A program made the position numbers and the translations under genes. Source: Escherichia phage phT4A. Taken from it: a stretch of 64,000 nt of DNA. The stretch lies in sequence record NC_055712.1, one strand, 5' to 3'. Each line of letters begins with the position of its first letter. Positions within the stretch are counted from its first letter, which is position 1. Positions 5,930 to 60,588 of the stretch are shown here, piece by piece. The notes below the pieces were generated by a model, which saw only the letters and a list, made by a program, of their open reading frames with translations, was not told where the DNA came from and did no database searches.

Positions 5930-5975
5930 GAACCCAATATAACAAAAGCCCTCAACCGAAGTCAAGGGCTTTGTT
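5930..5975 (-). repeat. promoter-stem-loop cassette, family S (hairpin with TTGACT in loop, then TATATT)
   Basis: aaagcccTTGACTtcggttgagggcttttgtTATATT on minus strand; related copies at 20950-20995, 50311-50385, 60250-60302. Confidence 0.6.
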
Positions 5976-6257
5976 TTAAATTTTTACTAGTTTTGGCAAT
6001 CGAAGAACTATACCAGGATGGATCAGACGTGCATCCGGAATAGAATCACGGTTGATTTTAGCGATATCAGGCCAAAGTTCACCAACACCATACAGTTTCT
6101 TTGCTATAGAATATAGGCTATCGCCTGGTTGCACGACATAGCGATCAGATTCAATCTTAACCAGATCCTGGTTAATGATATCATCAAAGGCTTTTGCTTT
6201 CGCTTCGTTAATCGTGTTCCCGTAGTAATGGCGATCCATAATAGTTAATGTGATCAT
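5976..6257 (-). CDS. small LysM-domain protein
   Basis: YVVQPGDSLYSIAKKLYGVGELWPDIAKINRDSIPDARLIHPGIVLRLP matches LysM consensus pattern. Confidence 0.6.
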   Translation of the reverse strand: MITLTIMDRHYYGNTINEAKAKAFDDIINQDLVKIESDRYVVQPGDSLYSIAKKLYGVGELWPDIAKINRDSIPDARLIHPGIVLRLPKLVKI

Positions 6258-6925
6258 CGTTTCTTTCCTATGCTGTTTTCGTCTGTCTCTTCTAAGGATG
6301 GAGGTTCTTCCAGCCCCAGGGCATAACGTTTAGCATAGATTAGCATCAATGCATCTTTAGCGCAATCATGAATCGAATCATGCTGAATGAATCCATCTAA
6401 CATGCCTTTACGTAGTGGACACGTGGTCACTCCGCGAGTCAGTAAACGGTTTTCAATAGCTGTACGCACATCACGGCTATTCCAGAACACGGTCGGCATA
6501 TCTTCAAACGTGTCAAGTTTCCCTGTCATAGTTCGTACAACATCGGTTAGCATAGAACGATCGAATTCAGGGCCGCGCGTATAATCGTATGACTGCCAAC
6601 GACTCACACCGTCAGCCGCTAAATCAGCAAAGAATTGTCGATGACCTTCGTACAAATCCATGTCGATATCGGAAGGGAACAAAACCCTTTGCGCTTCTTT
6701 AGATTGCTGTTTCCACCATTCGATCGTTTTTTCATCTTTGATGCGTTCTGGTTGTTTCCGGATGTCAAATTTGTACTTTCTTCCTTTAGCAATCAGTTCC
6801 TGAAAGGTAGGCGGATCATAAGGATCATCAACAAACGGAACATAGCTAAGTTCAGCTAGTTTTCCTTTTGGAAACGGGCCAATACTTTCATAATCAAATA
6901 CGAAATCTACGGGTAAATGACTCAT
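6254..6925 (-). CDS. dexA: exonuclease A (DexA)
   Basis: 223 aa; collinear similarity to recalled T4 DexA (TIEWWKQQS, TTCPLRKGMLDGFIQHDSIHDCAKD). Confidence 0.85.
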   Translation of the reverse strand: MSHLPVDFVFDYESIGPFPKGKLAELSYVPFVDDPYDPPTFQELIAKGRKYKFDIRKQPERIKDEKTIEWWKQQSKEAQRVLFPSDIDMDLYEGHRQFFADLAADGVSRWQSYDYTRGPEFDRSMLTDVVRTMTGKLDTFEDMPTVFWNSRDVRTAIENRLLTRGVTTCPLRKGMLDGFIQHDSIHDCAKDALMLIYAKRYALGLEEPPSLEETDENSIGKKR

Positions 6926-7206
6926 TCGCGACCCCGCTTATACGATTCCATGAAATAGGCCAATGATAGCGCGACTTCCGGAGTAACATCAACGGATTCG
7001 ATCATGCCTGGAGTTACTGCCATCATCCCGAACTGACGAAGCCCACAACGAGCAATCGATTTTTCCAGTCGGATCATGTTTTCTACAGCCTCTGTAAAAT
7101 TGTCCAGATGTTCCCAATCGTGGTAATCTTCCATTGTAGAACGATCACTTTTCAAAATCAGATCGGCAACCAATTCAGCATAAAGGCGCGGAAGGTGAAT
7201 ATTCAT
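6922..7206 (-). CDS. hypothetical protein
   Basis: 94 aa ORF. Confidence 0.5.
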   Translation of the reverse strand: MNIHLPRLYAELVADLILKSDRSTMEDYHDWEHLDNFTEAVENMIRLEKSIARCGLRQFGMMAVTPGMIESVDVTPEVALSLAYFMESYKRGRE

Positions 7207-7515
7207 TTAAAATCCCTCAAGCATGTTTTTGTTTTCACGAATGTTACGACCCATTTTCAAAGTATCAATGATCACTGCATACTCTTCAAAAGTGAATTCG
7301 ATATCTTGTGAAATGTTTCCCCACGTGTAGGTCGGCCCGTTAGGACAGTATAACCCAACTTCTTTGTTTGCGTTGACAACGCAGCGCAATTTTGCAAACA
7401 ACAAATTGATATCGATAGAATTGAACCCTTCGAGATAATCAAGCCCCTCTCTACCAATACGGTCAACTTCTCGCAAAATCTTTTCTACATCTTTGACTTT
7501 AACAATAATTTTCAT
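7207..7515 (-). CDS. hypothetical protein
   Basis: 102 aa ORF; CUUCGG-type hairpin immediately upstream. Confidence 0.5.
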   Translation of the reverse strand: MKIIVKVKDVEKILREVDRIGREGLDYLEGFNSIDINLLFAKLRCVVNANKEVGLYCPNGPTYTWGNISQDIEFTFEEYAVIIDTLKMGRNIRENKNMLEGF

Positions 7516-7539
7516 AATAACCTCAAAGGGCCGAAGCCC

Positions 7540-8868
7540 TTAGACATAATCAACAGTGAATCGTGCGCGGGTAGTTCCTACATAAAGCAACTGCTTACAC
7601 AATTCATAATCGGCGTATGCGTATGCATCGCGCGTATACATGTATGAATGATCATACGTGCTTCCCTGACCTTTGTGATACGTACAAACCGGAAGCGCCT
7701 TAACCGTCTGGAACTTGTTTTTGATTTGCCAGAACGAATACCAGGGGGCTTTGTATCCGGTTTCCTGTTTCATCTTTTTATACTGAAACGCGACGTAGTT
7801 CAAATAATCGCCTAAACGTTCCTGCATAACCGGATCCGCGATAACCTGAATATCCGCTTTCGTATCCTCGAACATCGATTCTGTTTTCATCAAGAAATAA
7901 TCGATTTGTACCGGATCGCATCGGTCAGCTTTGATAGTATCAGAACGCGGTATGATTTCAAGGATTTTAATTTGCTCGTTGTTGTTATAGATAACTTCAA
8001 CAAACGAAACCCCATTCACACGGCCTTCTGTCACTAACGGTTCTTGCATCACAACCACTTCACCAACAATGAACGGCTGATCAGTTTTGTACAAGTGTTT
8101 ACGGATCACTGCGTTTAACTTGTCTACGTTTGCGTTAGTGTAAGCAAACATACGGTTATTGTTCAGGTCATCCGGAGTCTTAACACGGCTAAAATAACGT
8201 CTCAGGAAGTCACCAGCGTTTTCGTGCTTCATTACCCCTAGTTCACCATTCATGAGGGGCATTAACGGCTTACCGTCGCGTATAGCGCGTGATACCTGGA
8301 TGATTGGGTTTCCTTCTGCCTGACGCATAATCTTATCCATGCGAATGACATCAAAAATTTCCTCATCAAAGAACGGTGAAAGCTCGGTGATCCCTTCGGT
8401 ATTAACAGGACGGATCTGATCCTTATCACCCAATCCCAGGATCACCGCACAACTCGGAATAGTACGCTTGATGATACGGAATAGTTCTTTGTCAACCATC
8501 GATACTTCTTCAACCACAAACACACGACATTCAGACAGATCAGCGGCTTTTTTGCCTTTTTGCTGTTCAAATACTCGTAACTCTTCGTTGGTTACGGGGC
8601 TGATTTTCAGTGCTGAGTGAATGGTCGTTGCATCCATACCCACCGCCTCAGAGAGAACGTTTTTAGCCTGGTGCGTCGGTGCTGTCAACCAGATCCCACT
8701 AATACCCAGTTTTTTCAATGTTTCAAACACAAATTTTACCAGAGTAGTTTTACCAACACCCGGCCCACCTGTGATAGTAGTATGGATTTTGTTTCTGATA
8801 TTTTTAATCACTCGATCATGTGCATTTTTCTGGTCTTCGCTCAGATCGTCAAAAGTTAATTCGCTCAT
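7540..8868 (-). CDS. dda: Dda DNA helicase (SF1)
   Basis: 442 aa; Walker A GGPGVGKTT; collinear with recalled T4 Dda. Confidence 0.9.
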   Translation of the reverse strand: MSELTFDDLSEDQKNAHDRVIKNIRNKIHTTITGGPGVGKTTLVKFVFETLKKLGISGIWLTAPTHQAKNVLSEAVGMDATTIHSALKISPVTNEELRVFEQQKGKKAADLSECRVFVVEEVSMVDKELFRIIKRTIPSCAVILGLGDKDQIRPVNTEGITELSPFFDEEIFDVIRMDKIMRQAEGNPIIQVSRAIRDGKPLMPLMNGELGVMKHENAGDFLRRYFSRVKTPDDLNNNRMFAYTNANVDKLNAVIRKHLYKTDQPFIVGEVVVMQEPLVTEGRVNGVSFVEVIYNNNEQIKILEIIPRSDTIKADRCDPVQIDYFLMKTESMFEDTKADIQVIADPVMQERLGDYLNYVAFQYKKMKQETGYKAPWYSFWQIKNKFQTVKALPVCTYHKGQGSTYDHSYMYTRDAYAYADYELCKQLLYVGTTRARFTVDYV

Positions 8869-9155
8869 ACTTTAATCAATACCCCTTGAATACTTGCGTG
8901 TTCAATAAACCAACGCATATCTTTCTTTTTCTTTTCGGTTACGGTTTCAACTTCTTCCTTTCGAAAGAATCGGCTAAGACCACTTTGTTTAACTGGATTC
9001 ATCTTATCATGATATTCTTTGATAATCGAATTTTTATACTCGTTAGCATCGTCCGGAGATAGAAACAACAAAGGTGTTAACTCTCCTTCCTTAATGAAGG
9101 GAATTTTAAACCCGTCTTTATCCTTACTAACGACGATATAATATTTTGTAATCAT
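8865..9155 (-). CDS. hypothetical protein
   Basis: 96 aa ORF. Confidence 0.5.
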   Translation of the reverse strand: MITKYYIVVSKDKDGFKIPFIKEGELTPLLFLSPDDANEYKNSIIKEYHDKMNPVKQSGLSRFFRKEEVETVTEKKKKDMRWFIEHASIQGVLIKV

Positions 9156-9391
9156 TCTCGCCCCTCATAACAAACGTAGAATATTCCAACAAACCAAAAC
9201 ACTGATAGTATAATCAGTAAAAGTTTTCTTTCAACGCCATTTACGTGAAACACACACCAACCGAAAAGATATGTGATCATCGCGCAAACACCATAAGAAA
9301 GAACCCCAACAGCTACTAGCATCAAAAAGTGCCATTGATCGATACTATAAATATAATAAAGGAGATTATACATGATATCGACCGTAAGCAC
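9152..9391 (-). CDS. hypothetical membrane protein
   Basis: 79 aa, two hydrophobic segments; extended -10 (TGTATAAT) upstream. Confidence 0.4.
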   Translation of the reverse strand: MLTVDIMYNLLYYIYSIDQWHFLMLVAVGVLSYGVCAMITYLFGWCVFHVNGVERKLLLIILSVFWFVGIFYVCYEGRE

Positions 9392-9555
9392 AATAGTTGT
9401 TCATGCTCATTATACAACAACTCCCGTATTTGAAGGAGATATCTACACGTTCAAATACACTTTTCCTATCGAACAGATAGTTCAATTAATGAAAAATAGA
9501 CATCCTATCGGATGGATTACCCCAGCAACAAAACATCTACTAAGGAACACCATCG

Positions 9556-10215
9556 ATGGACTACCGTAAAATTTACACCAATCTTATAGAAAAAGCAAGA
9601 GATAGAACACTAAATTGTTACACAGAAAAGCATCATATCATCCCCCGATGTATGGGAGGTTGTGACGATCATGATAATTTAGTAGAACTTACCGCAGAAG
9701 AACATTATGTAGCCCATCAACTTCTTGTCAAGATGTATCCACACAATAATAAGTTGATATATGCTGCTAATATGATGTGCGTCAACGCAACACAGAGAAA
9801 TAATAAAGCATATGGATGGATCCGCAGAAAGTGGATATCTCAGATATCAAAAGACAGGACAGGGACAAAGGCAACAGAAGAACAACGCAAAAAGATGTCA
9901 GAATCCCATAGGGGAGACAAAAACTCTATGTATGGGTTACGCGGTGATAATCATCCTGCTTATGGTCAAAAACCCTGGAGAAATCAAATAACAATGAAAG
10001 GAAAGCATGAATGGAGGTATGCTGGGATTTTCTATGACTGGTATATTAACGATATTAAAGCTGGAATCTATAAAAGACAAGGACACAAGAGAATGCTACA
10101 AGAATTGCAAATTGCAACAATCTCCCGTGTTCCTAGAACATCAATCGAGTTATTCAAAAAGGGGTGGAACCCTTACGAAGATACCGATTGGGTTGAGTGG
10201 GCTAATAATCAATAG
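9556..10215 (+). CDS. freestanding HNH homing endonuclease (Mob-like), opposite to flanking genes
   Basis: HHIIPRCMGGCDDHDNLVELTAEEHYVAHQ HNH motif; paralog of 31484-32209. Confidence 0.8.
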   Translation: MDYRKIYTNLIEKARDRTLNCYTEKHHIIPRCMGGCDDHDNLVELTAEEHYVAHQLLVKMYPHNNKLIYAANMMCVNATQRNNKAYGWIRRKWISQISKDRTGTKATEEQRKKMSESHRGDKNSMYGLRGDNHPAYGQKPWRNQITMKGKHEWRYAGIFYDWYINDIKAGIYKRQGHKRMLQELQIATISRVPRTSIELFKKGWNPYEDTDWVEWANNQ

Positions 10216-14205: not shown

Positions 14206-14232
14206 TACAAAAAAGCCCCGAAAGGGGCTTAA
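14206..14232 (-). terminator. terminator hairpin AAGCCCCTTTCGGGGCTT plus U-run (minus sense)
   Basis: GC stem followed by T-run downstream of gene 14237-14491. Confidence 0.5.
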
Positions 14233-14883: not shown

Positions 14884-16320
14884 TTAAAATTGAATGTCAG
14901 ATTTTGCAATCTGTGCCATTTTATCACGTCGGGTAGATTCAGCCTGTTTAATCATCGGGCCTTGTGTCTGTTCTACTGTTTTAGGCATAGTGTTGCCGTG
15001 GTAGTCAGATTTAAACCCGTATTCGCTGTTGTCGGTATCCATCCAGCGCTGATTACCCTTTCGAACTTCCAACTTGAACTTGTTGAAAGTGTTCTTATCG
15101 CCATAACGGGATTTGATTTGCTTGAACAGTTGCATACCCTGATCAGCTAACTCTTCCGTCTCGATTACAGCTAACATAAAATCAGCCGTAGCAGGTAAAC
15201 CAGCGGATTCCGCAACATCACCCATACTCACATCCGAACTATCCCATGCAGAACGCCCAACCTGTGCGCCTGTCCACATTACGGTATTAGTTTCAACAGC
15301 AAGACCGCGTAGTTCTTCGGCAATTGCTTTAACCAGAATATAGGTATTCTCAGCACCTTTAACACGGGTTGAAGTACAGATCCCCAGGTAATCGACAATG
15401 ATCACATCCGGAACAAACTGTTTCTTCAATTTAAGCTCTTTCACAAGCGCTCTAAAGTGGTTTGCACCTGCACCCGATGTAGGGTACTGCTTGACCACCA
15501 AACGCCCAACCTTACCCGCTTTAAGGCGCTCCATTTTGTTCTTATAGTCTGCGTATGTAATGTTCCCTTCGTCGATGTCATCCATAGTCACATCAAGAAG
15601 GTTAGCATCGATACGCTTAGAGCAAACATGCTCTGCCATTTCCATAGAAATGTAAAGAACGTTTTTACCCTGTTGCAGATAATCAGCCGCAAGAGAACAT
15701 AAGCCCAGTGATTTACCAACGTTAACACCAGCCATGATGATATTCAGTGTACCACGTTCCGCGCCGCCTTTGGTGATTGCGTTCAGGATCGGGATACCAA
15801 ACGGAATTTTCATCGCCTTCGATTGGTAAAGCATCCACCGTTTTTCATAATCTTCGAAATAGTCATGACCTACCGAACTATCGAATGAAATTGCTAATGC
15901 TTCCTCCATGATTTCAGGGATAGCCCCAACACCAGGAAGTTTCTTGTTCTGTTCTGCCAGTGGTTTTTCTGCGTTCGCCTGGATTTCGATTGCACGAGAA
16001 AGAGCACGATACATTGCTTTGTCTTTGCAATATGTTTCCGTTTCCTTCATTAGCCAATCTAAATCTTCTGGCGCATTTTTCAGCGACTGAATCGCCTTTT
16101 TCGTGTCTTCGTAGACTACATCACTTAGATTTCGTTTGTCAAGCGCAACCTCTAAAGCAGTTTTTGACGGAATGCCGTTGAATTCCTGTACATGTTTATC
16201 AATGAGGTCAAACAAAACTTGTGCATTGCCTTCAAAATATTCCTTTTTCAGATGAGGCCATGCTTGGACAAAATACGTCCCGTTATAAATCAGGTTAGAA
16301 AATATTGTATCAACGATCAT
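14884..16320 (-). CDS. 41: replicative DNA helicase (gp41, DnaB-like)
   Basis: 478 aa; Walker A GVNVGKS; RecA-like fold motifs. Confidence 0.9.
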   Translation of the reverse strand: MIVDTIFSNLIYNGTYFVQAWPHLKKEYFEGNAQVLFDLIDKHVQEFNGIPSKTALEVALDKRNLSDVVYEDTKKAIQSLKNAPEDLDWLMKETETYCKDKAMYRALSRAIEIQANAEKPLAEQNKKLPGVGAIPEIMEEALAISFDSSVGHDYFEDYEKRWMLYQSKAMKIPFGIPILNAITKGGAERGTLNIIMAGVNVGKSLGLCSLAADYLQQGKNVLYISMEMAEHVCSKRIDANLLDVTMDDIDEGNITYADYKNKMERLKAGKVGRLVVKQYPTSGAGANHFRALVKELKLKKQFVPDVIIVDYLGICTSTRVKGAENTYILVKAIAEELRGLAVETNTVMWTGAQVGRSAWDSSDVSMGDVAESAGLPATADFMLAVIETEELADQGMQLFKQIKSRYGDKNTFNKFKLEVRKGNQRWMDTDNSEYGFKSDYHGNTMPKTVEQTQGPMIKQAESTRRDKMAQIAKSDIQF

Positions 16321-17968: not shown

Positions 17969-20267
17969 CCTTATATTCTTCTTCGAACTTTTTATAATGT
18001 TCGTGCAAAGATAATTCACCTTCTTGCAGGATACGGCGGATCGCTTCTTTCAGGAATACTTTCACAGAGGTCGGAGTACTCGAACGCTGTGTTTCCATAC
18101 CCATGATTTTCAATTTCGGTTTTTCATAGCGAGTTCCTTCGGAGTCCCACACGTTAGCCGCATATCGTTTTTTAGCAGTCCAGAAACTTCCCAACCCTTC
18201 GGAACCCAACGGAGGCCCAGAAATGATTTCACGATCCATAAACATCAGGTGTTCCACGTTGTTCATGTATTCGCAAAGTTCACGATACCCTTTATCGATC
18301 ATTGGTTCCATTCTTTCTTTAGCAAAGCGATCCAGGAAGTCAACCCAATGGTTATTATCCTTAAATTTAGCCTCACCACCAACTTTTGCAATCACGTTAT
18401 CCATACAAACATAAATGGAGTCAGTATCACAGTATCGAACATATGCATGATCCGTAGTACCGCACAGGTCGTTAAGGTATTCGTTTACCTTACGTTCAAT
18501 CCACTGGATAGCCAACTGCCCGAACATGGTGATCGCGCTGGCGTTTCGTAGATCGAAGTATCGGAAGTGTTCGTTACCCAACGCACCATAAAGGGAGTTG
18601 ATAGAAATCTTACGGTTAAGCTGTGCGGTGTTAGCTTGTGCGATCTTCTTCTCACACACGCGCTTAACTGCTTTAAGCATTTGTTTTGTAAGAGTTTTCA
18701 GAACTGCTTTCGATTCATCACTGAAATCTGTATAGAAATCAAAGTCAGGATCAACCATTTGGTTATGCGCGTCTGTTAAGTGTTCGAGTTCGTGCTTGAT
18801 GAGTTCAAGATTTCGCTCACCCGCCATCATTCGTTTTTTCCACATCTTACGCTGATCAAATACTTTCTTGATCTCTACTGGGATCACGCCTTTGATATCA
18901 CGGCGGAACATCCACCCGTTAGGAGAACAGCTAAATTCATCGCTAGGGCGCGGCGCGGTCTTATTAATATACTCTTCAAGAGCACGTACCGCAAAACTTC
19001 CCATAATCGTTTCAGGGCTTATATTCACCTGTCGGATGATGGAAGGGTACAGGCTTGTTAAGTCAAACGATACCATGTATTTGTAAGGCCCAGGAACTGG
19101 ATCCTTCACAAATGCCCCAGGGTAAGGGGTTTTAGTATGGCGTCTGTTTTCCGGAATAACAACCTTATCTTCACGCAGAGAGTTATAAATGATCGCGTCC
19201 CACGTTTTCAGCGGAGACATAACCCCTGGGAAGTTAATTTTTGCATAGTACGCTACAGACAGAACCAGTTCAATAAAGTTTCGTTTACCGTCGATATCAA
19301 GTACGCGGATAACGTCAACAATGTTGTACGTGATGTACAGTTGGTGATCGCGCTGGCGTAGTTCAGACAGGGAACCTTCATACTCAACTTTATTTTTACC
19401 AGTTTCGTATTCCGCGATCGCGTCCAGACGGTAAGACGGTTGCGGGGTAAAGCTGAATTTCTTATACAGCGCCATACCATCCATTTGAGCAACGCCGAAA
19501 ATATCATATCCTAATTGTTCGTTGCCGTAAGCGTCAGTAGTGGTTCTGGCGGTTACTTTACCAAACGGGCTAAAATGCCTTACCACGTTTTGACCGAAAA
19601 TGTTCAGGTATCGCGTGATGATATATGCAATATCGAATTTGTCAGAGTTCCATCCGGTTACAATAACAGGGGTTCGCTCTTTCCAATCTTTGATATACGC
19701 AGACAATAACGACTTCTCGGTCTGGAAAGACCGATAAACAATTTTGTTTAAATCTTCTTCGCTAATGTCTTTGCGATCAACGTTTGCCGCGCACCATTCC
19801 GCAAGGCCACCCTCAACCAGATCGTATACATAGAATTTATCTTCAATGCTATCGTAATGGGTGATCGCATCGATTGGATATTTTGCTTCACGCGGATCCG
19901 GAAATTCTGGGGCGGTCACCTCGATATCGATAGAAGCAATGCGAATGTGTTCGCGGTTGTATTCGATTTCATTCCGGTACATGTCAGAAATGTAAGCCAG
20001 TCGATAATCGTCCATACCTAGCGCTTCCATCCCAACATCGCGCATACGCTGCATCCAGTTTTTAGCTTCTTTGATGCTGTCAAACTGTTTTTTGAGGCAA
20101 GGCTTGCCATAAATGTCTTTGTATGGGGTTTCTACGCCATTCATAGCGTGTTGATACATTACGGGCGCATATTTCGTCTTACGTACCTGTTCGGTGCCGT
20201 TAGAGTCAACGAAGCGCTCGTAAATGGTATCTCCCATTTGTTCAACTGATAGGTAAAATTCATTCAT
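17969..20267 (-). CDS. 43: DNA polymerase (gp43, family B), 3' end truncated by gap
   Basis: Collinear with recalled T4 gp43 from N-terminus through the polymerase motifs (YGG-like SLYGALG, DTDS); reading across the gap in the ORF track is artefactual. Confidence 0.9.
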
Positions 20268-20949: not shown

Positions 20950-20995
20950 ACACCCAATATAACAAAGCCCCTGCACGAATGCAAGGGCTTTTTGA
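20950..20995 (-). repeat. promoter-stem-loop cassette, family S (TTGCAT variant)
   Basis: aaaagcccTTGCATtcgtgcaggggctttgtTATATT on minus strand. Confidence 0.55.
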
Positions 20996-32527: not shown

Positions 32528-34237
32528 ATGATCACCGAATCCAAAATGACTTATCAGGAAGCACTGAAAGTTTTGGGCGCAACTGGTAGCGAAACCAGCG
32601 CTGAAATGTCCAGACTCTTCAAACGTGCATCCTTACGCAATCACCCCGACCGTGGTGGTAGCAATGAATTAATGCAGAAAATCAACCAGGCTTACGATGT
32701 CGTTACAAAAACTGGGCCTAGTGGCGCACGTTCTGAGACTGCTGGTGATGTTCGAGCACGTTATGCCCGTCAAAAGAAAGAATGGGAAGAAAAAGTTGAT
32801 GCTTACTTTGTAGTGGCGAAAAACTATTTCAGCACCAAATTTAACGCACAGGAATTTGCGGATTACTTCACCAAATACACTGGATTGCCTACCACTTTCA
32901 AACAGGAAGTAACAAAAGGTAGTCACGGTGTTTATGCTTCGTTCCGTTTCACTTCTGGTGATGCTTACTTTGATTTCGGTTTCAACTGCACCCCTCCGAA
33001 TGGACAAGGGTTAGCCGCTCCGGATTCATCTGCACTGGGTAGCGTTTCTGTTAGTACCTTTGTACTGGTTGGAACTAAAAAACACAAAATGGCAAGCCGT
33101 GATTATCAATGGGGCAAAAACCCGGATAAGATCACTCCGGAAAGCCTGTTCCCGTCTAAAAAACTGGAAAGCATTTTCAGCCCTGTACAGAAAAATATCA
33201 AATACAAACGTGCTGACTACCTGGCATCATTCCGTAAGCTGTTAGGCGCTGACGTTAGCGGAAACGATATCTTTGTTGAAGTTGGTACACTGAAAGTTCG
33301 TTTCTATCGTCACGTATTCATGCGCAAAGGTGCTTATGTGTTTAGCGCGGTGTATGATCCTGCTGTATCGAAGTATCGTCCGGCTGCACAACTTCGCGGA
33401 ACCATGTTCGAAGACGAGGACGGCGCTTGCCTGGATATGATCGTTGATACGTTCAAAGAGTTGCAGAAACTGAAACCGAGTGTTCAAGGCGTTGTGAACG
33501 CGATCGATAAGATGAACGCAGAGTTTGCGGCGGGGCATCGTTCAGCATCTTTTGTTAAACGTGTAGCTGCTCAGGAAGCCGCACCGAAGCCAGAAGAGAA
33601 GCCAAAACGCACTGTTAATCGTATCGGTAAAGAGGAATATTTCGCAGCACTAAAAGATATTGGTGCTCGTGTAATGCCTACCAGCGGTTATGTTGAATTT
33701 GATAACGGCGCTGGTGTTACTATCAACTTCAAGCGTATTGTTGTAAACCGTAAAGCATACTACTCATTCAGTAGCTTTGATTTCACGTACTCTGGTCAGA
33801 AACACATTGAGTGGTTGAAAGGAATCGATATCGCAGAAGATACCAAAGGCGCAAGCATTAGCCTACTCACTGATACTCTGAAATCTTTACGTGGGATCTC
33901 TGACTGGAACACTGTTAAGAGCGCTTTAGATCAAATGAATTCTAACTTCAAGGCGGGTAAATTCTCCGCACCTCATGTGAAGAAGGAAGCAGAGCAAAAA
34001 GCACCGAAACAGAAAGACGAAATCGGCGCACAGCCTACCAAACCACAGGCGGCTAAGAAAGATACACCAGAAGTGGAAAAATCACAGGCTGTTCATGCAG
34101 CACGTGAGAAAGCGAATATGAACAACACTATTCGTAAAATGATGACTATGTTAGTCAAAGCACAGCGCAAAGACACTCCGGAAGATATCAAGAAGGAAGT
34201 TGATGCAGCAATTCAATTGTGGCGCTTGACTTATTAA
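32528..34237 (+). CDS. J-domain (DnaJ-like) protein with internally repeated C-terminal modules
   Basis: N-terminal J-domain with HPD motif (LRNHPDRGG...QKINQAYDVV); two or three related ~130-aa modules; host-optimal codons. Confidence 0.8.
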   Translation: MITESKMTYQEALKVLGATGSETSAEMSRLFKRASLRNHPDRGGSNELMQKINQAYDVVTKTGPSGARSETAGDVRARYARQKKEWEEKVDAYFVVAKNYFSTKFNAQEFADYFTKYTGLPTTFKQEVTKGSHGVYASFRFTSGDAYFDFGFNCTPPNGQGLAAPDSSALGSVSVSTFVLVGTKKHKMASRDYQWGKNPDKITPESLFPSKKLESIFSPVQKNIKYKRADYLASFRKLLGADVSGNDIFVEVGTLKVRFYRHVFMRKGAYVFSAVYDPAVSKYRPAAQLRGTMFEDEDGACLDMIVDTFKELQKLKPSVQGVVNAIDKMNAEFAAGHRSASFVKRVAAQEAAPKPEEKPKRTVNRIGKEEYFAALKDIGARVMPTSGYVEFDNGAGVTINFKRIVVNRKAYYSFSSFDFTYSGQKHIEWLKGIDIAEDTKGASISLLTDTLKSLRGISDWNTVKSALDQMNSNFKAGKFSAPHVKKEAEQKAPKQKDEIGAQPTKPQAAKKDTPEVEKSQAVHAAREKANMNNTIRKMMTMLVKAQRKDTPEDIKKEVDAAIQLWRLTY

Positions 34238-43408: not shown

Positions 43409-43485
43409 GGCCCCTTAGCTCAATAGGTAGAGCTAATCACTCATAATGGTTAGGTTCCCGGTTCAAGTCACGGGAGGGGCCACCA
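43409..43485 (+). tRNA. tRNA with CAU anticodon (Met, or Ile if lysidine-modified); T-stem imperfect
   Basis: Hand fold: 7-bp acceptor GGCCCCU/AGGGGCC, canonical D and anticodon arms, loop CUCAUAA, encoded CCA; T-stem has a mismatch. Confidence 0.6.
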
Positions 43486-48799: not shown

Positions 48800-50309
48800 T
48801 GAACTTGCGTCTACTCTGAAAACCAAAGAGAAAGAAGCAATTTTAAAACGTAATGCCGATAATGAATTATTGAAAGAAGTTTTCCGCATTACGTATACAA
48901 AACAGATTATGTTTTATGTGCGTCAATTTCCTCTGGTAGAAGGGAAACCAGGCACAACACCGCTTTCCGATGCAATCAAAGCATTGCTGGAAGATTTAGC
49001 AAGCCGGAAATATACAGGCAATGCAGCGCGTGATCGTTTACTGGATATTGTATCATCAGTGAACATTAACGATCGTGAAGTGCTACGCCGTATCATTAAC
49101 CGCGATCTGGAATGTGGTGCTGGCACAACCTTACCAAACAGGGTATGGAAGAAACTCATTCCTGAACAGCCTCAATGCCTCGCTACGCCGTTTAGTGAAA
49201 AGGCTTTACGTCGCATCATTTTCCCTGCTTACTCGCAGCTTAAAGCCGATGGTGCGCGTTGTATGGCTGATTTGTTGGAAGCATTAAACCGTAAAGTATC
49301 GAGGGCGGGTAACGAGTACGAAGGGTTAACCCAACTTGATATCGATCTGAAAAAGATTCGCGATTATCTGGGATATGATGTAGTTCTGGATGGAGAATTG
49401 ATTTATGTTCCTTCCGGAACCGTACCAACATTACCTGAACCTGAAACAGACATGCCTTTTTCTTTATCTGCTTTCATGGACGATGATGATAACGACATTG
49501 CGTTATTTGCGGAAGAAGTTCGCAAAGTATCGACCCCAGAAGAAGAACAGGCCGAAGCAAAACGCGAAGAAGGGAACGGGATCGTAAACAAATCTCTGAA
49601 AGGGACGATCACCGAAGAAGAACAGCGAAACATTGTTTATGTTGTTTGGGATATTATTCCATATGAGGTGTATTACGGCGAAGCTGAAAGTGTTCAGACT
49701 TATGATGAACGGTTTAGCCTGTTGCGTGATATCCTCCTGGATCTTTCTCTGCCTTCTGTTCGTTTGATTCAGTCTAAGCTGGTTAATAACATTGCAGAAG
49801 CGAAACAGGACTATAACAATTACCGCAATGACGGTAAAGAAGGTTCTATTCTCAAAAACAGAAACTTCAAATGGAAAGATTCGCGAGTAGCCGATCAGGT
49901 TAAGCTGAAAAACAAAACCCCGATTGAACTACGGATCATTGATATCTACGCGCACACTAAAGAAGACCATAAGGTCGGCGGGTTTGTGGTGGAAGATTTA
50001 TCCGGAATGGCTCGAACGAATACCGGATCTGGGTTAACTGATACCGATTATCGTTACGATGATGATGGTATTACCCGTGTATACATTCCATTAGATGAAC
50101 GTGGTGAACTGGATCGCGAATACATCATGGCGCATAAAGATGAATACATTGGGGCCATTGTAGAAATGGAAGTTGACGGCCTCCAGAAGTCGAAAACGCG
50201 TAAGAAAGGGGAACCGGAATACAGTTTCTTCCTTCCTATTATCAAGAAGATAAGACGCGATAAGACCGAACCCGACGATATTCATGTTGTCTTTGCAGAT
50301 CTATTTTGA
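48780..50309 (+). CDS. 30: ATP-dependent DNA ligase (gp30)
   Basis: 509 aa; adenylation motif KADGAR; collinear with recalled T4 ligase. Confidence 0.9.
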   Translation: MILSILNELASTLKTKEKEAILKRNADNELLKEVFRITYTKQIMFYVRQFPLVEGKPGTTPLSDAIKALLEDLASRKYTGNAARDRLLDIVSSVNINDREVLRRIINRDLECGAGTTLPNRVWKKLIPEQPQCLATPFSEKALRRIIFPAYSQLKADGARCMADLLEALNRKVSRAGNEYEGLTQLDIDLKKIRDYLGYDVVLDGELIYVPSGTVPTLPEPETDMPFSLSAFMDDDDNDIALFAEEVRKVSTPEEEQAEAKREEGNGIVNKSLKGTITEEEQRNIVYVVWDIIPYEVYYGEAESVQTYDERFSLLRDILLDLSLPSVRLIQSKLVNNIAEAKQDYNNYRNDGKEGSILKNRNFKWKDSRVADQVKLKNKTPIELRIIDIYAHTKEDHKVGGFVVEDLSGMARTNTGSGLTDTDYRYDDDGITRVYIPLDERGELDREYIMAHKDEYIGAIVEMEVDGLQKSKTRKKGEPEYSFFLPIIKKIRRDKTEPDDIHVVFADLF

Positions 50310-50310
50310 T

Positions 50311-50385
50311 AAAAAGCCCTTGACTCCGGTCGGGGGCTTTGTTATATTGGGCCTATCGAAACGTAAATCACTAAGAGAATATATT
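50311..50385 (+). repeat. promoter-stem-loop cassette, family S (hairpin with TTGACT, TATATT, ATCGAAACG)
   Basis: aaaagcccTTGACTccggtcgggggctttgtTATATTgggcctATCGAAACG. Confidence 0.6.
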
Positions 50386-50955
50386 ATGACTAGTAGTTAT
50401 CAGAAACACAAAACCCTTATGGCAAACCTGTCCGGTAAACATATCGACGAAGTAAAATCTCTGCTGACAGTAACCGAAGGTTCCCGTTTTGACACAAATC
50501 ACATTATCAAACCTTCTGTGAAGAAAGTACTGAAAGTGATTTACCGACATCCGGTGTATCAGTGCGTTCATATCATGAACAGCAACGCATTTATTTTCGT
50601 ATATAACGAATCCGATGATAAGTGTGTTGGTATTTTCCGAAAACCTAACTTTGAATGCATGAGCGAAGCGGCTGTTGCAACCCCGATCGTTGAAGAATAT
50701 CCGGATTATGTTCAACGCAACATGCGTTATGTGCAATCCCGACTTGATTATGCATACGATTTCAATTCTGACGCGGTAGAAGCGCTGGCGGATATCCTTT
50801 GCAAAAACCAGAAAGATCGTCAAATGACAAAATATCTGACTGACCCAACACCGTCAACAATCCGAATTTCTGTCGAAGTTCCGTTTGAAAATCATTTCAT
50901 GGCGGTTGAAGCACTTGCTAAACTTGGTTTAGAAGTGAAAACAGAAGCCGTTTAA
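50386..50955 (+). CDS. hypothetical protein
   Basis: Start at MTSSYQ with SD; 189 aa. Confidence 0.5.
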   Translation: MTSSYQKHKTLMANLSGKHIDEVKSLLTVTEGSRFDTNHIIKPSVKKVLKVIYRHPVYQCVHIMNSNAFIFVYNESDDKCVGIFRKPNFECMSEAAVATPIVEEYPDYVQRNMRYVQSRLDYAYDFNSDAVEALADILCKNQKDRQMTKYLTDPTPSTIRISVEVPFENHFMAVEALAKLGLEVKTEAV

Positions 50956-50960
50956 TAGCA

Positions 50961-51046
50961 CTTTTTGTTAAAGAAGCCTCTTGCAATGCAGGGGGCTTTT
51001 TTGTATAGTGTGTTCATCGAAACGAAACAGACAAAAGGAACATCAC
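50961..51046 (+). repeat. promoter-stem-loop cassette, family R (copy 1 of 2)
   Basis: Hairpin containing TTGCAA, TATAGT -10, ATCGAAACGAAAC leader, SD; ~85% identical to 5148-5228 reverse strand. Confidence 0.6.
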
Positions 51047-51337
51047 ATGAACTTCATCGATATCAACAAAGATTTGGAAGGTAAAAACATCAAACTCGTT
51101 AACCGTGAAATGTTAGAGAGTCTTGGTAACGGTGGCGAAAAATTCAGTGAAGAATTCTATAACAATTTATCGTTGATGACGGTCAAGCGCGTTGATGTTC
51201 AGGGTGGTTCTGGTTGGGTTTCTGCAATTCCGGTTTCCCTTGTAGATCAAGCAACATATGACCCAGTTGCGGATTCATGGGATCTGGAAATGCCGTTGGT
51301 ATTCGAAGAAGTCATGAAGTGTTACGAAATCGCATAA
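51047..51337 (+). CDS. hypothetical protein
   Basis: 96 aa; start at MNFIDINK. Confidence 0.5.
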   Translation: MNFIDINKDLEGKNIKLVNREMLESLGNGGEKFSEEFYNNLSLMTVKRVDVQGGSGWVSAIPVSLVDQATYDPVADSWDLEMPLVFEEVMKCYEIA

Positions 51338-51347
51338 GGGTATTATT

Positions 51348-51659
51348 ATGAATAGCGGAAAATTACAAATGAAAGTTAGCGAAGAAGAAGTTAAAGAGCG
51401 GTTATCGGTAGCAAGAAGATTCCTTGAATCTATCGACCCTGATAAACTTGGAAAATGCCCTGATACGATTTGCCTTAATTGTGGGCGTTCTGTTCTTGTT
51501 GGTAAGTGTTGCGATAATCCAAATATAGTTGTGATGGAAAAGGAACAAGTATCCCCCGAAACATGGGATCAGATCCAGGAAATCATTAAAAACCCTCCAG
51601 CGCCAACTAAGAAATTACGTGAATTGATGACAAGGAAAATGAAATATGAGCAAATTTAA
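51348..51659 (+). CDS. hypothetical Cys-rich protein
   Basis: CPDTICLNCG...CC. Confidence 0.5.
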   Translation: MNSGKLQMKVSEEEVKERLSVARRFLESIDPDKLGKCPDTICLNCGRSVLVGKCCDNPNIVVMEKEQVSPETWDQIQEIIKNPPAPTKKLRELMTRKMKYEQI

Positions 51660-52023
51660 ATTGAGTGCAACCGTTCGCCTTATTCGTTGGAATGGTGAAG
51701 AGATCCGTTATGATGACCCCGAATTCGCCCATGAAATTCTTTCGCATCGTTTGGGATTGAAAAACGCGTCATTGGTTCAAACTGTTAAAACATCAGCAGA
51801 GCCGGAAATTTGGCGTTGTGTTATTCTGGATCTCGATAACAACATTGATTATGATGATCCTAAGAACTATCCTCTTCTGGAAGCACAAGTTGAGAATGCT
51901 CCAGAAGACAGACAGTGTTTTTTGGTTGAGTTACCACGCGAACATTACGAAAACATCATAAAGGCCCGTAAAAAGGTCAATAACAATGTTTTCGATCTCC
52001 ACCTCGGATTGTTTGAGGATTAA
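51646..52023 (+). CDS. hypothetical protein
   Basis: 125 aa ORF. Confidence 0.5.
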   Translation: MSKFKLSATVRLIRWNGEEIRYDDPEFAHEILSHRLGLKNASLVQTVKTSAEPEIWRCVILDLDNNIDYDDPKNYPLLEAQVENAPEDRQCFLVELPREHYENIIKARKKVNNNVFDLHLGLFED

Positions 52024-53129
52024 GTACTGCTAGTTGTGTTCGTAGTAGCGGCGCTGGTAGGTTCCCCCACCTGTATACATTCAAGTGTTTGCAGGTGGAA
52101 ATCTTTTGATACGTCTCGAACACATTCAACGATCAGATATTTTCCTGCATACTCTTCCCCAAATACCTCAATGATTGCCCCTACCTTAACATCTAAACGA
52201 CCCTGCTTTATATCGAATCGGATCCGGCGTTCATAGCTGGATAACAATTGCATTTTAGACGCCTGGAAAGGTTTACCTTCTGAATCTGGGTTCTGAAAGT
52301 TGGTATCATAGATTGCATTACGGTTTGTGAAGATCCATGTATTTTCTGTGTCTGTATCAGCCAGTATGTCACCGTACATCTTTTTATCAGTCAATGACAG
52401 ACTAAAGAAACTGGCATCTTTAAACAGCGTTGTGTTATCCTTATGGGTAATATACTGGGCTTCTGTGAATATGACAGTATCACCAACAAACACGTTATCA
52501 ACGTTAAATTTGTATGCTGGGATCGGTGTCTGGGCCAGAATGTCAGTTGAACTTTTAAGGAAAATACCGGAACCATCTTCCCACAGATAACAGAAGTCAG
52601 AAGAAACTACACTTTGCCCGTTGTCCCTGATATAATCAAATATATCCTGATATGTACCATTTAGACATCCAGGAGGGATACGTATGTTACCGCCGTCAAC
52701 TTCGGGGGTAAGTAGTTTCATTTTGCTATACAGTGCCGTCATACACTCTGTAATCGTCTGTACGGCGTTGTTACTAAATGAACGGGCAAACTTACGTCTG
52801 AACGTTTTATGCAGCGGAGAGAGGTTCATACGCAGCACAGAACGGTTCTTATCGTCAGTATCTACGTTAGAGTAAAGCAATCCGTAATAATGTTGTTCCT
52901 GTGTACCGTTATACTGGAAAGATACCTGTATGATCGGCTGGATAAGTTGCTGATAGATTAACTGTGCGTCGTATATCTGCATCAGCGTTTCCGATGAGCC
53001 GTTAATCATCGTCTTTTCACTAAACGAGACAAGAGCGGGTAGCAATTCAGTATATGCGTTATCAATGTATTTTTCGTATGATGTATATAATTTAATCGAT
53101 GTGACTCGATTGACGATTTTTTCAGCCAT
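52020..53129 (-). CDS. hypothetical late-region protein (possibly baseplate hub, gp27-like)
   Basis: 369 aa; Ser/Thr-rich C-tail; adjacent to baseplate genes; identity not verified. Confidence 0.4.
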   Translation of the reverse strand: MAEKIVNRVTSIKLYTSYEKYIDNAYTELLPALVSFSEKTMINGSSETLMQIYDAQLIYQQLIQPIIQVSFQYNGTQEQHYYGLLYSNVDTDDKNRSVLRMNLSPLHKTFRRKFARSFSNNAVQTITECMTALYSKMKLLTPEVDGGNIRIPPGCLNGTYQDIFDYIRDNGQSVVSSDFCYLWEDGSGIFLKSSTDILAQTPIPAYKFNVDNVFVGDTVIFTEAQYITHKDNTTLFKDASFFSLSLTDKKMYGDILADTDTENTWIFTNRNAIYDTNFQNPDSEGKPFQASKMQLLSSYERRIRFDIKQGRLDVKVGAIIEVFGEEYAGKYLIVECVRDVSKDFHLQTLECIQVGEPTSAATTNTTSST

Positions 53130-55561: not shown

Positions 55562-56635
55562 ATGAAGTTTTCTATTATTGATGACAGTATAAACACTCTC
55601 AAAAATATTAAAAATCGCGGTATCCCCTCTGGGGGTGCCGCAATCACAGAATCAGTATTAAAGCAAACTATCGTTACCGCCGAATTTCCGGCCCAACGTG
55701 CAGCAGGTATCGATAACGCTTATAATGCTTCGAGTCTGTATAATAACGGCCTTCTGTTCACTGCATATGATTTTAATGGTGTTGGTAGTAAAGACAACTA
55801 TCGTTCATTACGTCAGGCAGCACAGAACCCAAAACAAATACTATCATCTGCGACGGGTAATGTTAAGTACAAACAAGTGTTGAATAGTTCTATTGGTACT
55901 ATGGAACCTGTTTGCCAGATCCTGCTACCGCGAAGCCTGAACGATAACGAAGTAAACAGCCACCGCTATCAAGATGCAAACGATAGTTTCTTAACCAAAG
56001 GGTTGAGCCGTGTTGTTTCAAACATGGTATGGGGCGCTGTAGAATCCGTTTCAGGCGGTATTATGGCAGACCGAAGAGAAGCCCTTGATGTTGGTACTAA
56101 AGCCGCTTTCCAGGGTTCTGACAAGCGAACAAAGATGTATTACAATACATTCGTGATTGAAAGCCGTAATGATTTGCTGGAACTGATTAAAATCTACTAT
56201 CTGTTTACTGTTCTGGGATATGGCACAACTTCTGGCGGTACTGCTAAAGAGGTTGCTGCATTGGTTAAACAGTATTACGGTGTTCTGGGTGCTAAAACCG
56301 CTAACGCAATTAGCCCTTCCAGTAACCCAGTAACAGCGTCAGATTTTGATAATAGTCTGGGTAATGACGTGGTTGATTTCATTTCAAACGTAGAGGTTAT
56401 TAAATCGCCTCCTGTCTGGTTTATTCGTGATTTCCAGTCTGGGGATTCCTTGCGTTTACCTCATTCAACCTTTGGGCCAGCAGGTATTACCAGTGTTCGC
56501 TTTGGTCGTTCTATTGATAATATTGTAAATACATTAAGAGAATCACCAAATACCCCGATCTCACTTGAGGTCGAAATTCAATTTATGGAACTGATCGATA
56601 TGCGTCAGGATTCTATTTTTGATACAAATTACTAA
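55562..56635 (+). CDS. 48: baseplate tail-tube junction protein (gp48-like)
   Basis: 357 aa; position between gp29-like and gp54. Confidence 0.6.
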   Translation: MKFSIIDDSINTLKNIKNRGIPSGGAAITESVLKQTIVTAEFPAQRAAGIDNAYNASSLYNNGLLFTAYDFNGVGSKDNYRSLRQAAQNPKQILSSATGNVKYKQVLNSSIGTMEPVCQILLPRSLNDNEVNSHRYQDANDSFLTKGLSRVVSNMVWGAVESVSGGIMADRREALDVGTKAAFQGSDKRTKMYYNTFVIESRNDLLELIKIYYLFTVLGYGTTSGGTAKEVAALVKQYYGVLGAKTANAISPSSNPVTASDFDNSLGNDVVDFISNVEVIKSPPVWFIRDFQSGDSLRLPHSTFGPAGITSVRFGRSIDNIVNTLRESPNTPISLEVEIQFMELIDMRQDSIFDTNY

Positions 56636-58831: not shown

Positions 58832-59224
58832 ATGGGTGTAAATCTGAGGTTGCTATATAGCGATATAGAACCTAACATGCAACGAGATTGGAATAATGAC
58901 GTAGCGGCCTCAAAAGGGGCCGCAGCAGTAAGAAATAGTTTGATTGGTATCGTAACCACGATCAAGGGTACACGTCCATTTGATAGTAACTTTGGTTGTG
59001 CAATTAGTGATATGCTGTTTGAGAACATGAACCCTCTGACAGCGGAATCAATTAGAACTTCTATCGTATCTGCGATCCGGACATATGAGCCTAGAGTATA
59101 TAATCTTTCTGTTGAAGTCATTCCACAGTATGATGATAACTCAGTAACAGTAACTATCTATTACAGCATCATTGATGACCCGGATGACGTAGAGCAAATC
59201 AAACTACAGCTTTCCGCATCATAA
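58832..59224 (+). CDS. 25: baseplate wedge protein (gp25, GPW family)
   Basis: LYSDIEPNMQRDWNNDV, TIKGTRPFD, NFGC, IDDPDDVEQIKLQLSAS match recalled T4 gp25. Confidence 0.85.
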   Translation: MGVNLRLLYSDIEPNMQRDWNNDVAASKGAAAVRNSLIGIVTTIKGTRPFDSNFGCAISDMLFENMNPLTAESIRTSIVSAIRTYEPRVYNLSVEVIPQYDDNSVTVTIYYSIIDDPDDVEQIKLQLSAS

Positions 59225-59225
59225 C

Positions 59226-59260
59226 AAAAAGCCCCTTCCTTTCGGTTGGGGCTTTCTTTT
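59226..59260. terminator. bidirectional terminator hairpin between convergent genes
   Basis: AAAAAGCCCC-loop-GGGGCTTTCTTTT. Confidence 0.5.
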
Positions 59261-60232: not shown

Positions 60233-60249
60233 AATGTATTCCTCATTGT

Positions 60250-60302
60250 TTTCGATAGAACCAATATAGCAAAAAGCCCCGACCGAAGTCAAGGGCTTTT
60301 TC
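60250..60302 (-). repeat. promoter-stem-loop cassette, family S
   Basis: aaaagcccTTGACTtcggtcggggctttttgcTATATTggttctATCGAAAAC on minus strand. Confidence 0.6.
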
Positions 60303-60303
60303 A

Positions 60304-60588
60304 TCAATGCAAGAAAGATTTCACGTACTGTTCGATCTTTTCACGACATGTATCAACTGAGGTGCTTTCCGCAATTACGGCATGACATAACGCCTCGCCT
60401 CCGACCCAGAAACTCATCATGTACTGAATATCACGACCTTCCATTTCTTTTTGATGCGCTTTGATTCGATCGAAAGCGTTTTCGATTGTTTCAGTAGCAG
60501 TAAGCATTTCGGATTCCCCGTCAACCTCCGCCAGTTCCCCATCGATCATTTCGCTTTCGACTTCTTCCCAGTATACTATCGTTATCAT
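60304..60588 (-). CDS. hypothetical acidic protein
   Basis: 94 aa, Glu/Asp-rich. Confidence 0.5.
   Translation of the reverse strand: MITIVYWEEVESEMIDGELAEVDGESEMLTATETIENAFDRIKAHQKEMEGRDIQYMMSFWVGGEALCHAVIAESTSVDTCREKIEQYVKSFLH

Follow-up and report, generated by a model that had tools for sequence, protein, structure and literature searches.

Promoter-early-stem-loops (PeSLs) are intergenic repeats whose definition includes the stop codon of the upstream gene, an A/T-rich region, sigma70-like -35 and -10 elements, a variably placed stem-loop, and a Shine-Dalgarno (SD) sequence followed by the ATG of the next gene (PMC2839356; PMC4122927). They are repeated in hyperplastic regions and tied to insertions and deletions (indels), and one chimeric cassette has been described after excision of the flanked open reading frame (ORF) (PMC2839356; PMC4122927). 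PeSLs were described in the T4-type phages RB49/phi1, T4/PST, and KVP40/nt-1 (Arbiol et al. 2010, PMC2839356; Comeau et al. 2014, PMC4122927). Here, a 64,000-nucleotide stretch of the genome of Escherichia phage phT4A (NC_055712.1; below, the window) was analyzed with regard to an intergenic cassette of roughly 95 bases. The first-pass annotation had reported it as two near-identical copies of opposite orientation, preceding the genes 51047-51337 (plus strand; copy A) and 4884-5147 (minus strand; copy B), and had assigned it to the PeSL type. The best explanation, held with considerable confidence, is that it represents a PeSL-type composite cassette of a Slopekvirus, the copies of which serve gene-module recombination.

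Segments 49000-53000 and 3500-7000 of the window show 99-100% identity to Klebsiella myoviruses of the genus Slopekvirus (Straboviridae). These are VAC66, VAC13, KLB23, and KP15 and KP27 relatives, and by its sequence the window is assigned to a Slopekvirus, a T4-like Klebsiella phage of the KP15/RB43 group. Copy A is located in a stretch of small ORFs with the DNA ligase gene on one side and a baseplate hub gene on the other, and copy B in a minus-strand run of small hypothetical ORFs downstream of dexA. Both regions are accessory, or "hyperplastic", and the genes adjoining the cassettes are annotated as hypothetical in the relatives.

The existence of the repeat was confirmed by pairwise alignment. 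Its arms, 50954-51035 (+) and 5159-5240 (-), form an ungapped inverted repeat of 82 nt with 89% identity that reaches slightly further upstream than first reported. It is the longest direct or inverted repeat of the window, the runner-up being 41 nt long with 85% identity. Compared from stop codon to start codon, copies A and B share 82 of 98 positions (84%), in agreement with the figure of about 85% given earlier. For 5,253 pairs of 97-nt regions upstream of other ORFs in the window, the mean identity was 56.4% (standard deviation 3.7, maximum 70.1%), so that the two copies stand about seven standard deviations above unrelated A/T-rich upstream regions. Chance likeness of A/T-rich promoters was rejected on the basis of this null distribution and of the repeat ranking. 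The proteins encoded downstream of copies A and B give no BLASTP alignment to each other, as the first-pass annotation had held. Its count of two copies has to be enlarged: an nhmmer profile built from the copies recovers four members in the window, namely A (E = 1.3e-28), B (5.9e-25), and two further cassettes, C (5.7e-15) and D (4.8e-13). The coordinates of all four are collected in Table 1.

Table 1. Cassettes of phT4A, their parts, and related elements (window positions)
Feature	Position	Strand	Remark
Cassette A, complete	50953-51049	+	From TAA of ORF 50284/50386-50955 to ATG of gene 51047-51337
TAA stop codon, A	50953-50955	+	
Upstream box, A, ATAGCACTTTTTGTTAAAGA	50955-50974	+	6 bp to -35, 29 bp to -10
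Marbox 15-mer, A, GCACTTTTTGTTAAA	50958-50972	+	Forward orientation; pattern match
Hairpin, A	50969-51003	+	16-bp stem, 3-nt loop; resembles an intrinsic terminator for the upstream gene
G+C-rich core of hairpin A	50976-50996	+	
T run, A	50997-51002	+	
Terminator-scan match, A	50977-50994	+	
-35-like TTGCAA, A	50981-50986	+	Hairpin top; promoter scan, TTGCAA-17-TATAGT (9/12)
-10 TATAGT, A	51004-51009	+	Promoter scan
Conserved start region and leader CATCGAAACGAAAC, A	51015-51028	+	Exact motif
SD AGGA, A	51036-51039	+	ATG at 51047
Crossover interval for loss or gain of the three-ORF module	51004-51018	+	Three-way and eight-way alignments
Cassette B, complete	5145-5241	-	Ends at ATG 5147-5145 of gene 4884-5147
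TAG stop codon of gene 5236-5538	5236-5238	-	Inside the box of B
Upstream box, B	5220-5239	-	Marbox 15-mer GCATTTTTTGTTAAA at 5222-5236
Hairpin, B, followed by T run	5193-5223	-	14 pairs, 3-nt loop; terminator scan
-35-like TTGCAT, B	5208-5213	-	
-10 TATCTT, B	5185-5190	-	
Leader CATCGAAACGAAAC, B	5166-5179	-	
Single-gene module (87 aa) between B and C	4884-5147	-	Replaced in KP27
Cassette C, short (class-II-like)	4808-4886	-	From TAA 4884-4886 to ATG 4808-4810 of gene 4586-4810
Upstream box, C, ATAGCACTTTTTGTTAAAAC	4865-4884	-	Followed by 18-bp spacer
-10 TATAGT, C	4841-4846	-	
Hairpin, C	4834-4860	-	Around the -10
Leader CATCGAAAC, C	4827-4835	-	Followed by SD
Cassette D, without upstream box	4524-4593	-	TAG 4586-4588; ATG 4524-4526 of gene 4197-4526
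-35-like TTGCAT, D	4588-4593	-	Overlaps the TAG stop; 17 nt to the -10
-10 TATAGT, D	4565-4570	-	
Leader CATCGAAACGAAAC, D	4546-4559	-	Followed by SD
Sister hairpin-promoter, consensus AAAAAGCCCTTGACTYCGGTCGGGGCTTTTGYTATATT	5919-5975	-	
Sister hairpin-promoter	20952-20993	-	
Sister hairpin-promoter	50304-50383	+	
Sister hairpin-promoter	60237-60307	-	

Cassettes A, B, and C share one order of parts, in which the stop codon is followed by a 20-bp box, a hairpin, the -10, a leader of the CATCGAAAC type, the SD sequence, and the ATG. The predicted hairpins are stable (A: -25.3 kcal/mol, z = -5.44, with none of 200 shuffled sequences as stable; B: -21.9 kcal/mol, z = -4.25; C: -17.2 kcal/mol, z = -3.1), and the terminator scan finds T runs after the stems. 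The two substitutions that separate the 3' arms of hairpins A and B exchange U-G and U-A pairs and keep the stem. The -35-like TTGCAA/TTGCAT had been placed in the loop region earlier, and in detail the first four bases, TTGC, make up the top of the stem, whereas the last two bases of the hexamer lie in the loop, which is AAT in A and ATT in B. The leader CATCGAAACGAAAC was likewise found in both copies as an exact match. The -10 reported for both is TATAGT in A, and B possesses the weaker TATCTT. As a promoter-consensus match, B (TTGCAT-17-TATCTT, with 3/6 matches in the -35) is weaker than A (TTGCAA-17-TATAGT) and D (TTGCAT-17-TATAGT), and C combines a good -10 with AAAACA at the -35 position, that is, without a usable -35. 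The long form (A and B) equals the short form (C) plus 11 bp, about one helical turn, and the longer spacer leaves room for a larger hairpin bearing its own -35. The transcription start of A is predicted at A51016, 7 nt past the -10. One short intergenic unit would end the upstream transcript, start a new one, and supply a standard leader and ribosome site: the hairpin would terminate transcription, and the promoter would fire with its start at the A of CATCG.

Every PeSL feature that can be tested by sequence appears to be present in this family. All four cassettes extend from a stop codon to a start codon, and A, B, and C have a predicted stable stem-loop in or beside the promoter (z from -5.4 to -3.1). 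The family is repeated before small ORFs of hyperplastic regions, with four members and four related hairpin-promoters in the window, and both indels or replacements between close relatives and a chimeric cassette were found, as set out below. The four sister hairpin-promoters (Table 1) are intergenic, carry the -35 in the stem followed by a TGn extended -10, precede unrelated genes, and show pairwise identities of 83-90% over 30-41 nt; they are probably further PeSLs. One of them, 50304-50383, is contained in the plus-strand ORF 50284-50955 when this is called from ATG 50284, in which case the ORF overlaps the end of the ligase gene; in the KLB23, KP15, and NU-KP11 records, the counterpart begins at the ATG equivalent to window position 50386, which fits the cassette better. 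The paper on KP15 and KP27 reported promoters predicted by MEME and terminators predicted by ARNold, with no mention of PeSLs or MotA. In the corresponding GenBank records, the cassette sites are listed as MEME "putative middle promoters" and ARNold terminators, not as PeSLs; the copy B site of KP27 carries both the "terminator" and the "putative middle promoter" labels. The anatomy of the cassettes and the natural variation at copies A and B together support the assignment to PeSL-type repeats mediating modular shuffling.

At copy A, the shuffling can be followed base by base. The VAC13 genome contains two direct cassettes, the left one with the hairpin and the right one of the short form, that enclose a 621-bp module of three small ORFs (ORF211-213). 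This arrangement was found in 81 phage records in total (VAC13 and 80 others). The window does not contain the module, and VAC66 has the identical junction. According to the three-way alignment, window copy A equals the left cassette of VAC13 through GTATAGTGTGTTCAT and the right cassette from C51018 on; GTATAGTGTGTTCAT (51003-51017) is common to both parental cassettes, C51018 being the first right-specific base. Copy A of the window is thereby identified, from the alignment, as a recombinant of two cassettes. The eight-way alignment revealed a second junction type in kp20, KLB27, and ALF_ER54, which also do not contain the module: the right-cassette CTTGTTTGG follows directly after the left hairpin, which implies that the crossover was further upstream or that the parental cassette was a different one. 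In NU-KP11, a fourth gene accompanies the module, and its junction lies at ACAAAAGGAAC, a repeated sequence of the SD region. This extra 264-nt gene (NU-KP11 locus 1300-1632) has a leader composed of an A-type front (CAGACAAAAGGAAC) and a B-type end (TACGAAAATG); after it come a separate hairpin and the SD repeat, in this order. In KP15-type genomes, the cassette is retained, and homology ends at its last base (window 51049); a diverged allele, a further cassette, and a further gene come next. In RB43 and in Cronobacter and Enterobacter phages, megablast finds only the cassette (window 50951-51049; 82-85% identity), located directly after the ligase gene.

Similar events are seen at copy B. 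The blastn comparison of the window with KP27 shows homology from 5600 to 5155 that resumes from 4888 to 4300; between 5155 and 4888, the window contains 266 bp with one gene, and KP27 contains 526 bp with three unrelated genes (53, 72, and 55 aa). The limits of the segment swapped in KP27 fall in the leader of cassette B and the spacer of cassette C. The homology of RB16, RB43, and Miller starts at 4884, where cassette C starts, and that of R2_1 starts at 5232, where cassette B starts. Cassette B of KP27 bears the A-type leader CAGACAAAAGGAAC, and the leaders themselves are mosaic. Because small accessory genes lie between near-identical copies, recombination of one copy with another deletes, inserts, or swaps whole gene modules, and a rearranged gene would retain working signals from the cassette. 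The crossover points differ between genomes, which argues for general recombination between short repeats, homologous or microhomology-mediated, and not for a site-specific process. UvsX, UvsY, and subunits of a recombination endonuclease are encoded according to the VAC66 and VAC13 annotations.

Several points weigh against this interpretation. The start of transcription, the terminator activity, and the activator dependence considered below are all inferred from sequence. Across the window, promoter-like and terminator-like matches occur in numbers near chance, and consensus matches alone are weak proof; copy B has a poor -10 and only half of the -35 consensus. Whether the 621-bp module was deleted or inserted cannot be told, and the second junction type could reflect another parental left cassette, not an independent crossover.

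The first-pass account overlooked three features of the cassette: the 20-bp upstream box, the second spacing variant, and the sharing with T1-like siphoviruses. The upstream box GCACTTTTTGYTAAA is a perfect match, in forward orientation, to the consensus of the marbox, 5'-gcannwwntgnnaaa-3', which in class II promoters has the forward orientation and overlaps the -35 (PMC12052159). The boxes of A, B, and C match 10/10 specified positions of the 15-mer consensus, as do both phage box forms, GCAC(TTT/GAA)TTG(C/T)TAAA, and the positions varying among phage boxes are those that are free or restricted to A/T in the consensus. A 20-mer marbox consensus, said to go back to Martin et al. in 1999, reportedly reads AYnGCACnnWnnRYYAAAYn. 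The window contains six perfect 15-mers versus 1.48 expected, a number reached in 0/100 shuffled sequences, and a -10 is suitably spaced only for those of A, B, and C. The other three, at 761-775 (-), 33545-33559 (+), and 55911-55925 (-), apparently lie within long ORFs and are probably due to chance or non-functional.

The spacing of the box falls into two classes. The distance from the box to the -10 is 18 bp in copy C and 29 bp in A and B. In the micF promoter of E. coli MG1655, the arrangement is ACAGCACTGAATGTCAAAAC-18 bp-TAGAAT, and in copy C it is ATAGCACTTTTTGTTAAAAC-18 bp-TATAGT, both with AAAACA at the -35 position; the right cassette of VAC13 also has 18 bp from the 20-mer to the -10. 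Copy C and the VAC13 right cassette thus show the geometry of a class II marbox (forward orientation, overlap with the -35, and a set spacing to the -10). The phage box shares 15/20 positions with the micF box and 16/20 with the marbox of the mar operon, both read from MG1655. The soxbox of zwf is a forward box located 7 bp upstream of its -35 (PMC9638938). The forward box of A and B is located 6 bp before the -35 and 29 bp before the -10, the corresponding zwf distances being 7 bp and 30 bp.

As a host-activator site, the upstream box has the mildly favored interpretation. MarA, SoxS, or Rob of the host (RamA in Klebsiella) would bind the box and recruit RNA polymerase. The short version (C) would have the class II geometry of micF, with AAAACA replacing the -35, and the long version (A, B), with its 11-bp longer spacer and own -35, would carry the box as in class I promoters of the zwf type. 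Besides MarA, SoxS, and Rob, Klebsiella has RamA (PMC8811837). A tblastn search with MarA found no homologue in any Klebsiella phage record, and a phage-encoded MarA-like activator was rejected on this basis; any such activator would therefore come from the host. The VAC13 locus contains genes annotated as a putative ADP-ribosyltransferase (2984-3301) and an Srd-like "decoy of sigma70" (4155-4679). It may be speculated that modification of the alpha subunit at R265, as in T4, would shut off promoters dependent on the MarA family after the early phase.

The same box-promoter is present in T1-like phages. A blastn search with copy A matched 239 phage records, of which about 50 belong to Klebsiella siphoviruses with genomes of about 50 kb (genus Webervirus, Drexlerviridae). 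The match in the phage IMGroot has the structure TAAATAGCACTTTTTGTTAAA-hairpin-TTTTGCTATTGT-CTATTCATCGAAACGAAGCAGACAAAGAGG...ATG. Transfer of a whole gene module from Webervirus was considered and rejected: in tblastn and blastn comparisons, the IMGroot locus matches only the cassette in the window. A pattern scan of the IMG/VR database gave at least 120 stretches, mostly in contigs of 46-52 kb, often several in each and on both strands, with 140 of 153 matches being exactly 57 nt long. In other copies of these loci, the box has a second common form, ATAGCACGAATTGCTAAAAC.

Less biased evidence was provided by coliphage T1, chosen independently of the pattern, and by 55 T1-like promoter cores that were not selected by pattern. 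The T1 genome contains 20 perfect marbox matches versus 0.83 expected. About 18 boxes have the extended form, and in 13/18 of them, situated before genes and pointing the same way, the best -10 lies exactly 20 nt past the 15-mer; several annotated terminators lie inside the spacer between box and -10. Three T1 boxes, 103-117 (-), 15069-15083 (-), and 18833-18847 (-), have no good -10 at the usual distance, and two of these orphan boxes lie in the structural gene block in antisense orientation. A perfect marbox in the register of the 13 was found in 44/55 of the distinct T1-like cores, and 436/536 boxes of the IMG/VR loci also have this register.

In the rest of the VAC13 genome, examined as three loci, one more class-II-type cassette of the GAA form was found (about VAC13 414-480, minus strand), and the small-ORF region at the left end contains several promoters of the hairpin type, whose leader is ACACACATCGAAACGAAACAGA. 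The number of box cassettes is thereby five in a VAC13-type genome and presumably four in the phage of the window. The imbalance in copy number, about 18 copies per 49 kb in T1 versus 4-5 per 175-kb Slopekvirus genome, and the presence of the box throughout Drexlerviridae suggest a transfer from T1-like phages to the RB43/KP15 lineage. The box-promoter core has probably been exchanged with T1-like phages, in which it is the standard promoter. On evenly balanced evidence, there may exist a class of phage promoters built on a consensus marbox, comprising essentially all Drexlerviridae promoters and the cassettes of the RB43/KP15 group and using MarA, SoxS, Rob, or RamA of the host, with the box-promoter-leader unit, its spacer holding a terminator hairpin, mobile between unrelated families and acting as a recombination handle in the T4-like genome. 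An earlier description of the box in phages or of such Drexlerviridae promoters was not found in the literature; most subscription journals were outside the search, as was the original T1 genome paper, and an earlier account is possible.

The host-marbox interpretation also faces objections. The box-to--10 distance of A and B is 29 bp versus 30 bp in zwf. The IMG/VR loci were picked with a pattern that contains the box, and the counts from them are partly biased. Moreover, the phage box is more strictly conserved than host marboxes, with the consensus-free positions nearly invariant, and a different, more specific binding protein could account for such conservation. Such a protein could be encoded by the phage, as an activator of MotA-like type acting at a "middle" promoter or as a Cro-like regulator such as ST23 of T1. 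This is unlikely, though it deserves consideration: the depositors of KP15 and KP27 labeled the sites putative middle promoters, the strict box has the inverted arms TAGCA/TGCTA, and a small helix-turn-helix protein is encoded by all T1-like phages. Within the box, TTTGCTAAA resembles the MotA box of T4, TTTGCTTTA. The T4 MotA box is centered at about -30, 12 +/- 1 bp upstream of the -10. The center of the phage box is near -40, not -30, and the -10 comes 20 nt past the end of its TTTGYTAAA in C and 31 nt past it in A and B. MotA and AsiA are not known from T1-like phages. Homologues of T1 ST23 were found only in records of about 45-52 kb and in none of about 175 kb among the 40 of 825 matches listed. 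With the homologues confined to genomes of about 50 kb among these matches, no regulator shared with Slopekvirus was found, and ST23 was rejected in this role. The GCA/TGC pseudo-symmetry is already contained in the published marbox consensus, and both spacing classes fit known marbox geometries.

Three other assignments of the box region were rejected. A sigma54 promoter would require TGGCAC-N5-TTGC; TAGCAC-N3-TTGC has a spacing 2 bp short, does not contain the GG, and would place the start inside the hairpin. A -35 at TTGYTA would be 22 nt away from the -10, a distance too large for sigma70. Finally, Lrp binding, a dimeric operator, or a cruciform at TAGCA-N5-TGCTA is opposed by arms of just 5 bp and by the GCA/TGC symmetry of the marbox consensus.

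For the cassette as a whole, it is quite improbable that ordinary conserved promoter and terminator signals resemble each other through function, with no role in rearrangements and with nearby indels being coincidental. All conserved blocks do have a plausible regulatory role, and small accessory genes of T4-like phages are variable anyway. Against this, homology is interrupted inside cassettes at both copy A and copy B, as seen in several independent genome pairs; copy A corresponds base for base to a hybrid of left and right cassettes; and the identity of A and B, whose repeat is the longest of the 64-kb window, extends over positions without known function. It is very improbable that the box is an UP element. 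T and A tracts are present in it, but GCAC and TG, which are invariant, do not belong to the features of an UP element, the box of the short version overlaps the -35 position and not -40 to -60, and hundreds of copies keep the same orientation and, to the base pair, the same distance. Least probable of all is a site-specific mobile element (a recombinase or homing-endonuclease target, or a unit like a miniature inverted-repeat transposable element), an option suggested by the short inverted arms of the box, by the homing endonuclease genes common in the genome, and by the PeSL authors having left site-specific recombination open (PMC4122927), since such a system would cut at one place, and the crossovers vary at A (within GTATAGTGTGTTCAT, upstream near CTT, and within the SD repeat ACAAAAGGAAC) and at B (in leader and spacer), with no target-site duplications and no recombinase gene adjoining the cassettes.

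Several observations concern other parts of the window. Between about 9300 and 13900, it is not colinear with VAC66 (6089-10072 of the compared locus), with offsets of about 3.3 kb that coincide with homing-endonuclease genes annotated in VAC66; these genes are a second, independent source of indels in the genome. When the whole window was scanned against Rfam at gathering thresholds, the only match was a tRNA gene at 43409-43482 (+) (RF00005, 53.3 bits), the equivalent of which is annotated as tRNA-Met in VAC66; the cassette matches no Rfam family. Terminator-like G+C-rich hairpins with A and T runs on either side are located at 2063-2080, 14213-14230, and 59217-59258, the first two scoring as terminator-like on both strands; all three look like bidirectional terminators where transcription units meet.

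With the PeSL interpretation, the locus provides a clean natural case of PeSL-mediated shuffling beyond the three phage pairs of the original description. One site gives a base-resolved hybrid junction and several alternative outcomes in a therapeutically used phage genus, and recombination rates and mini-circle formation are directly testable at the copy A locus. If the marbox assignment is true, T1-like phages (including the Klebsiella Webervirus) and RB43/KP15-group phages would depend on Rob, MarA, SoxS, or RamA, regulators that many multidrug-resistant clinical strains up-regulate and that salicylate, bile salts, and oxidants induce. Phage growth would then depend on the state of the host, activator loss would be a new route of phage resistance, and synergy or antagonism between phages and antibiotics would be possible. 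The cassette would also be a documented gene-free regulatory unit common to unrelated phage families and would tie phage gene expression to regulators active in multidrug-resistant Klebsiella and E. coli.

In comparison with known systems, the cassettes resemble PeSLs in being intergenic units of about 100 bp with a stop codon, an A/T-rich upstream part, a sigma70-like promoter, and SD plus ATG, in the varying position of the stem-loop (over the -35 in A and B, around the -10 in C), and in the single hybrid cassette that remains after module loss, as proposed for ORF192 of RB49. They differ from the RB49 PeSLs in belonging to another genus (Slopekvirus, RB43 group) and in having stems outside the RB49 G-tract/C-tract family. 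They further differ from PeSLs in the highly conserved 20-bp box that replaces the generic A/T-rich region, in the missing usable -35 of C, in the conserved leader CATCGAAACGAAAC, and in a core common to an unrelated phage family. For the phi1/RB49 PeSLs, promoter and terminator activity and mini-circles were shown experimentally, whereas for the cassettes of the window such activity is predicted from sequence.

Among host promoters, the micF-type class II marbox promoters (PMC9178005, PMC9638938, PMC12052159) are similar in the consensus match, the forward orientation with GCAC distal, and the spacing. Unlike them, the phage boxes occur in phage genomes in many copies, are far less degenerate, and have a terminator hairpin within the spacer. 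In the class I forward soxbox promoter of zwf (PMC9638938), a weak -35 likewise follows the forward box after a few bp, but the interval in A and B is one bp shorter and holds a strong hairpin. T4 middle promoters share the replacement of the -35 by an activator box and the "middle promoter" label of the depositors; their box is centered about 8-10 bp closer to the start, and the box described here is also used by T1-like phages. The promoter-terminator pairs of T1 and Drexlerviridae have the same box (with a TTT or GAA middle), the same 20 nt from 15-mer to -10, and spacer hairpins annotated as terminators, and Webervirus shares the leader up to the SD; these phages differ from Slopekvirus in the copy number given above and in unrelated flanking genes. 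The cassette is best described as of PeSL type, a variant perhaps dependent on a host activator, and the present analysis adds to the known type a putative consensus marbox in two registers that is shared with T1-like phages.

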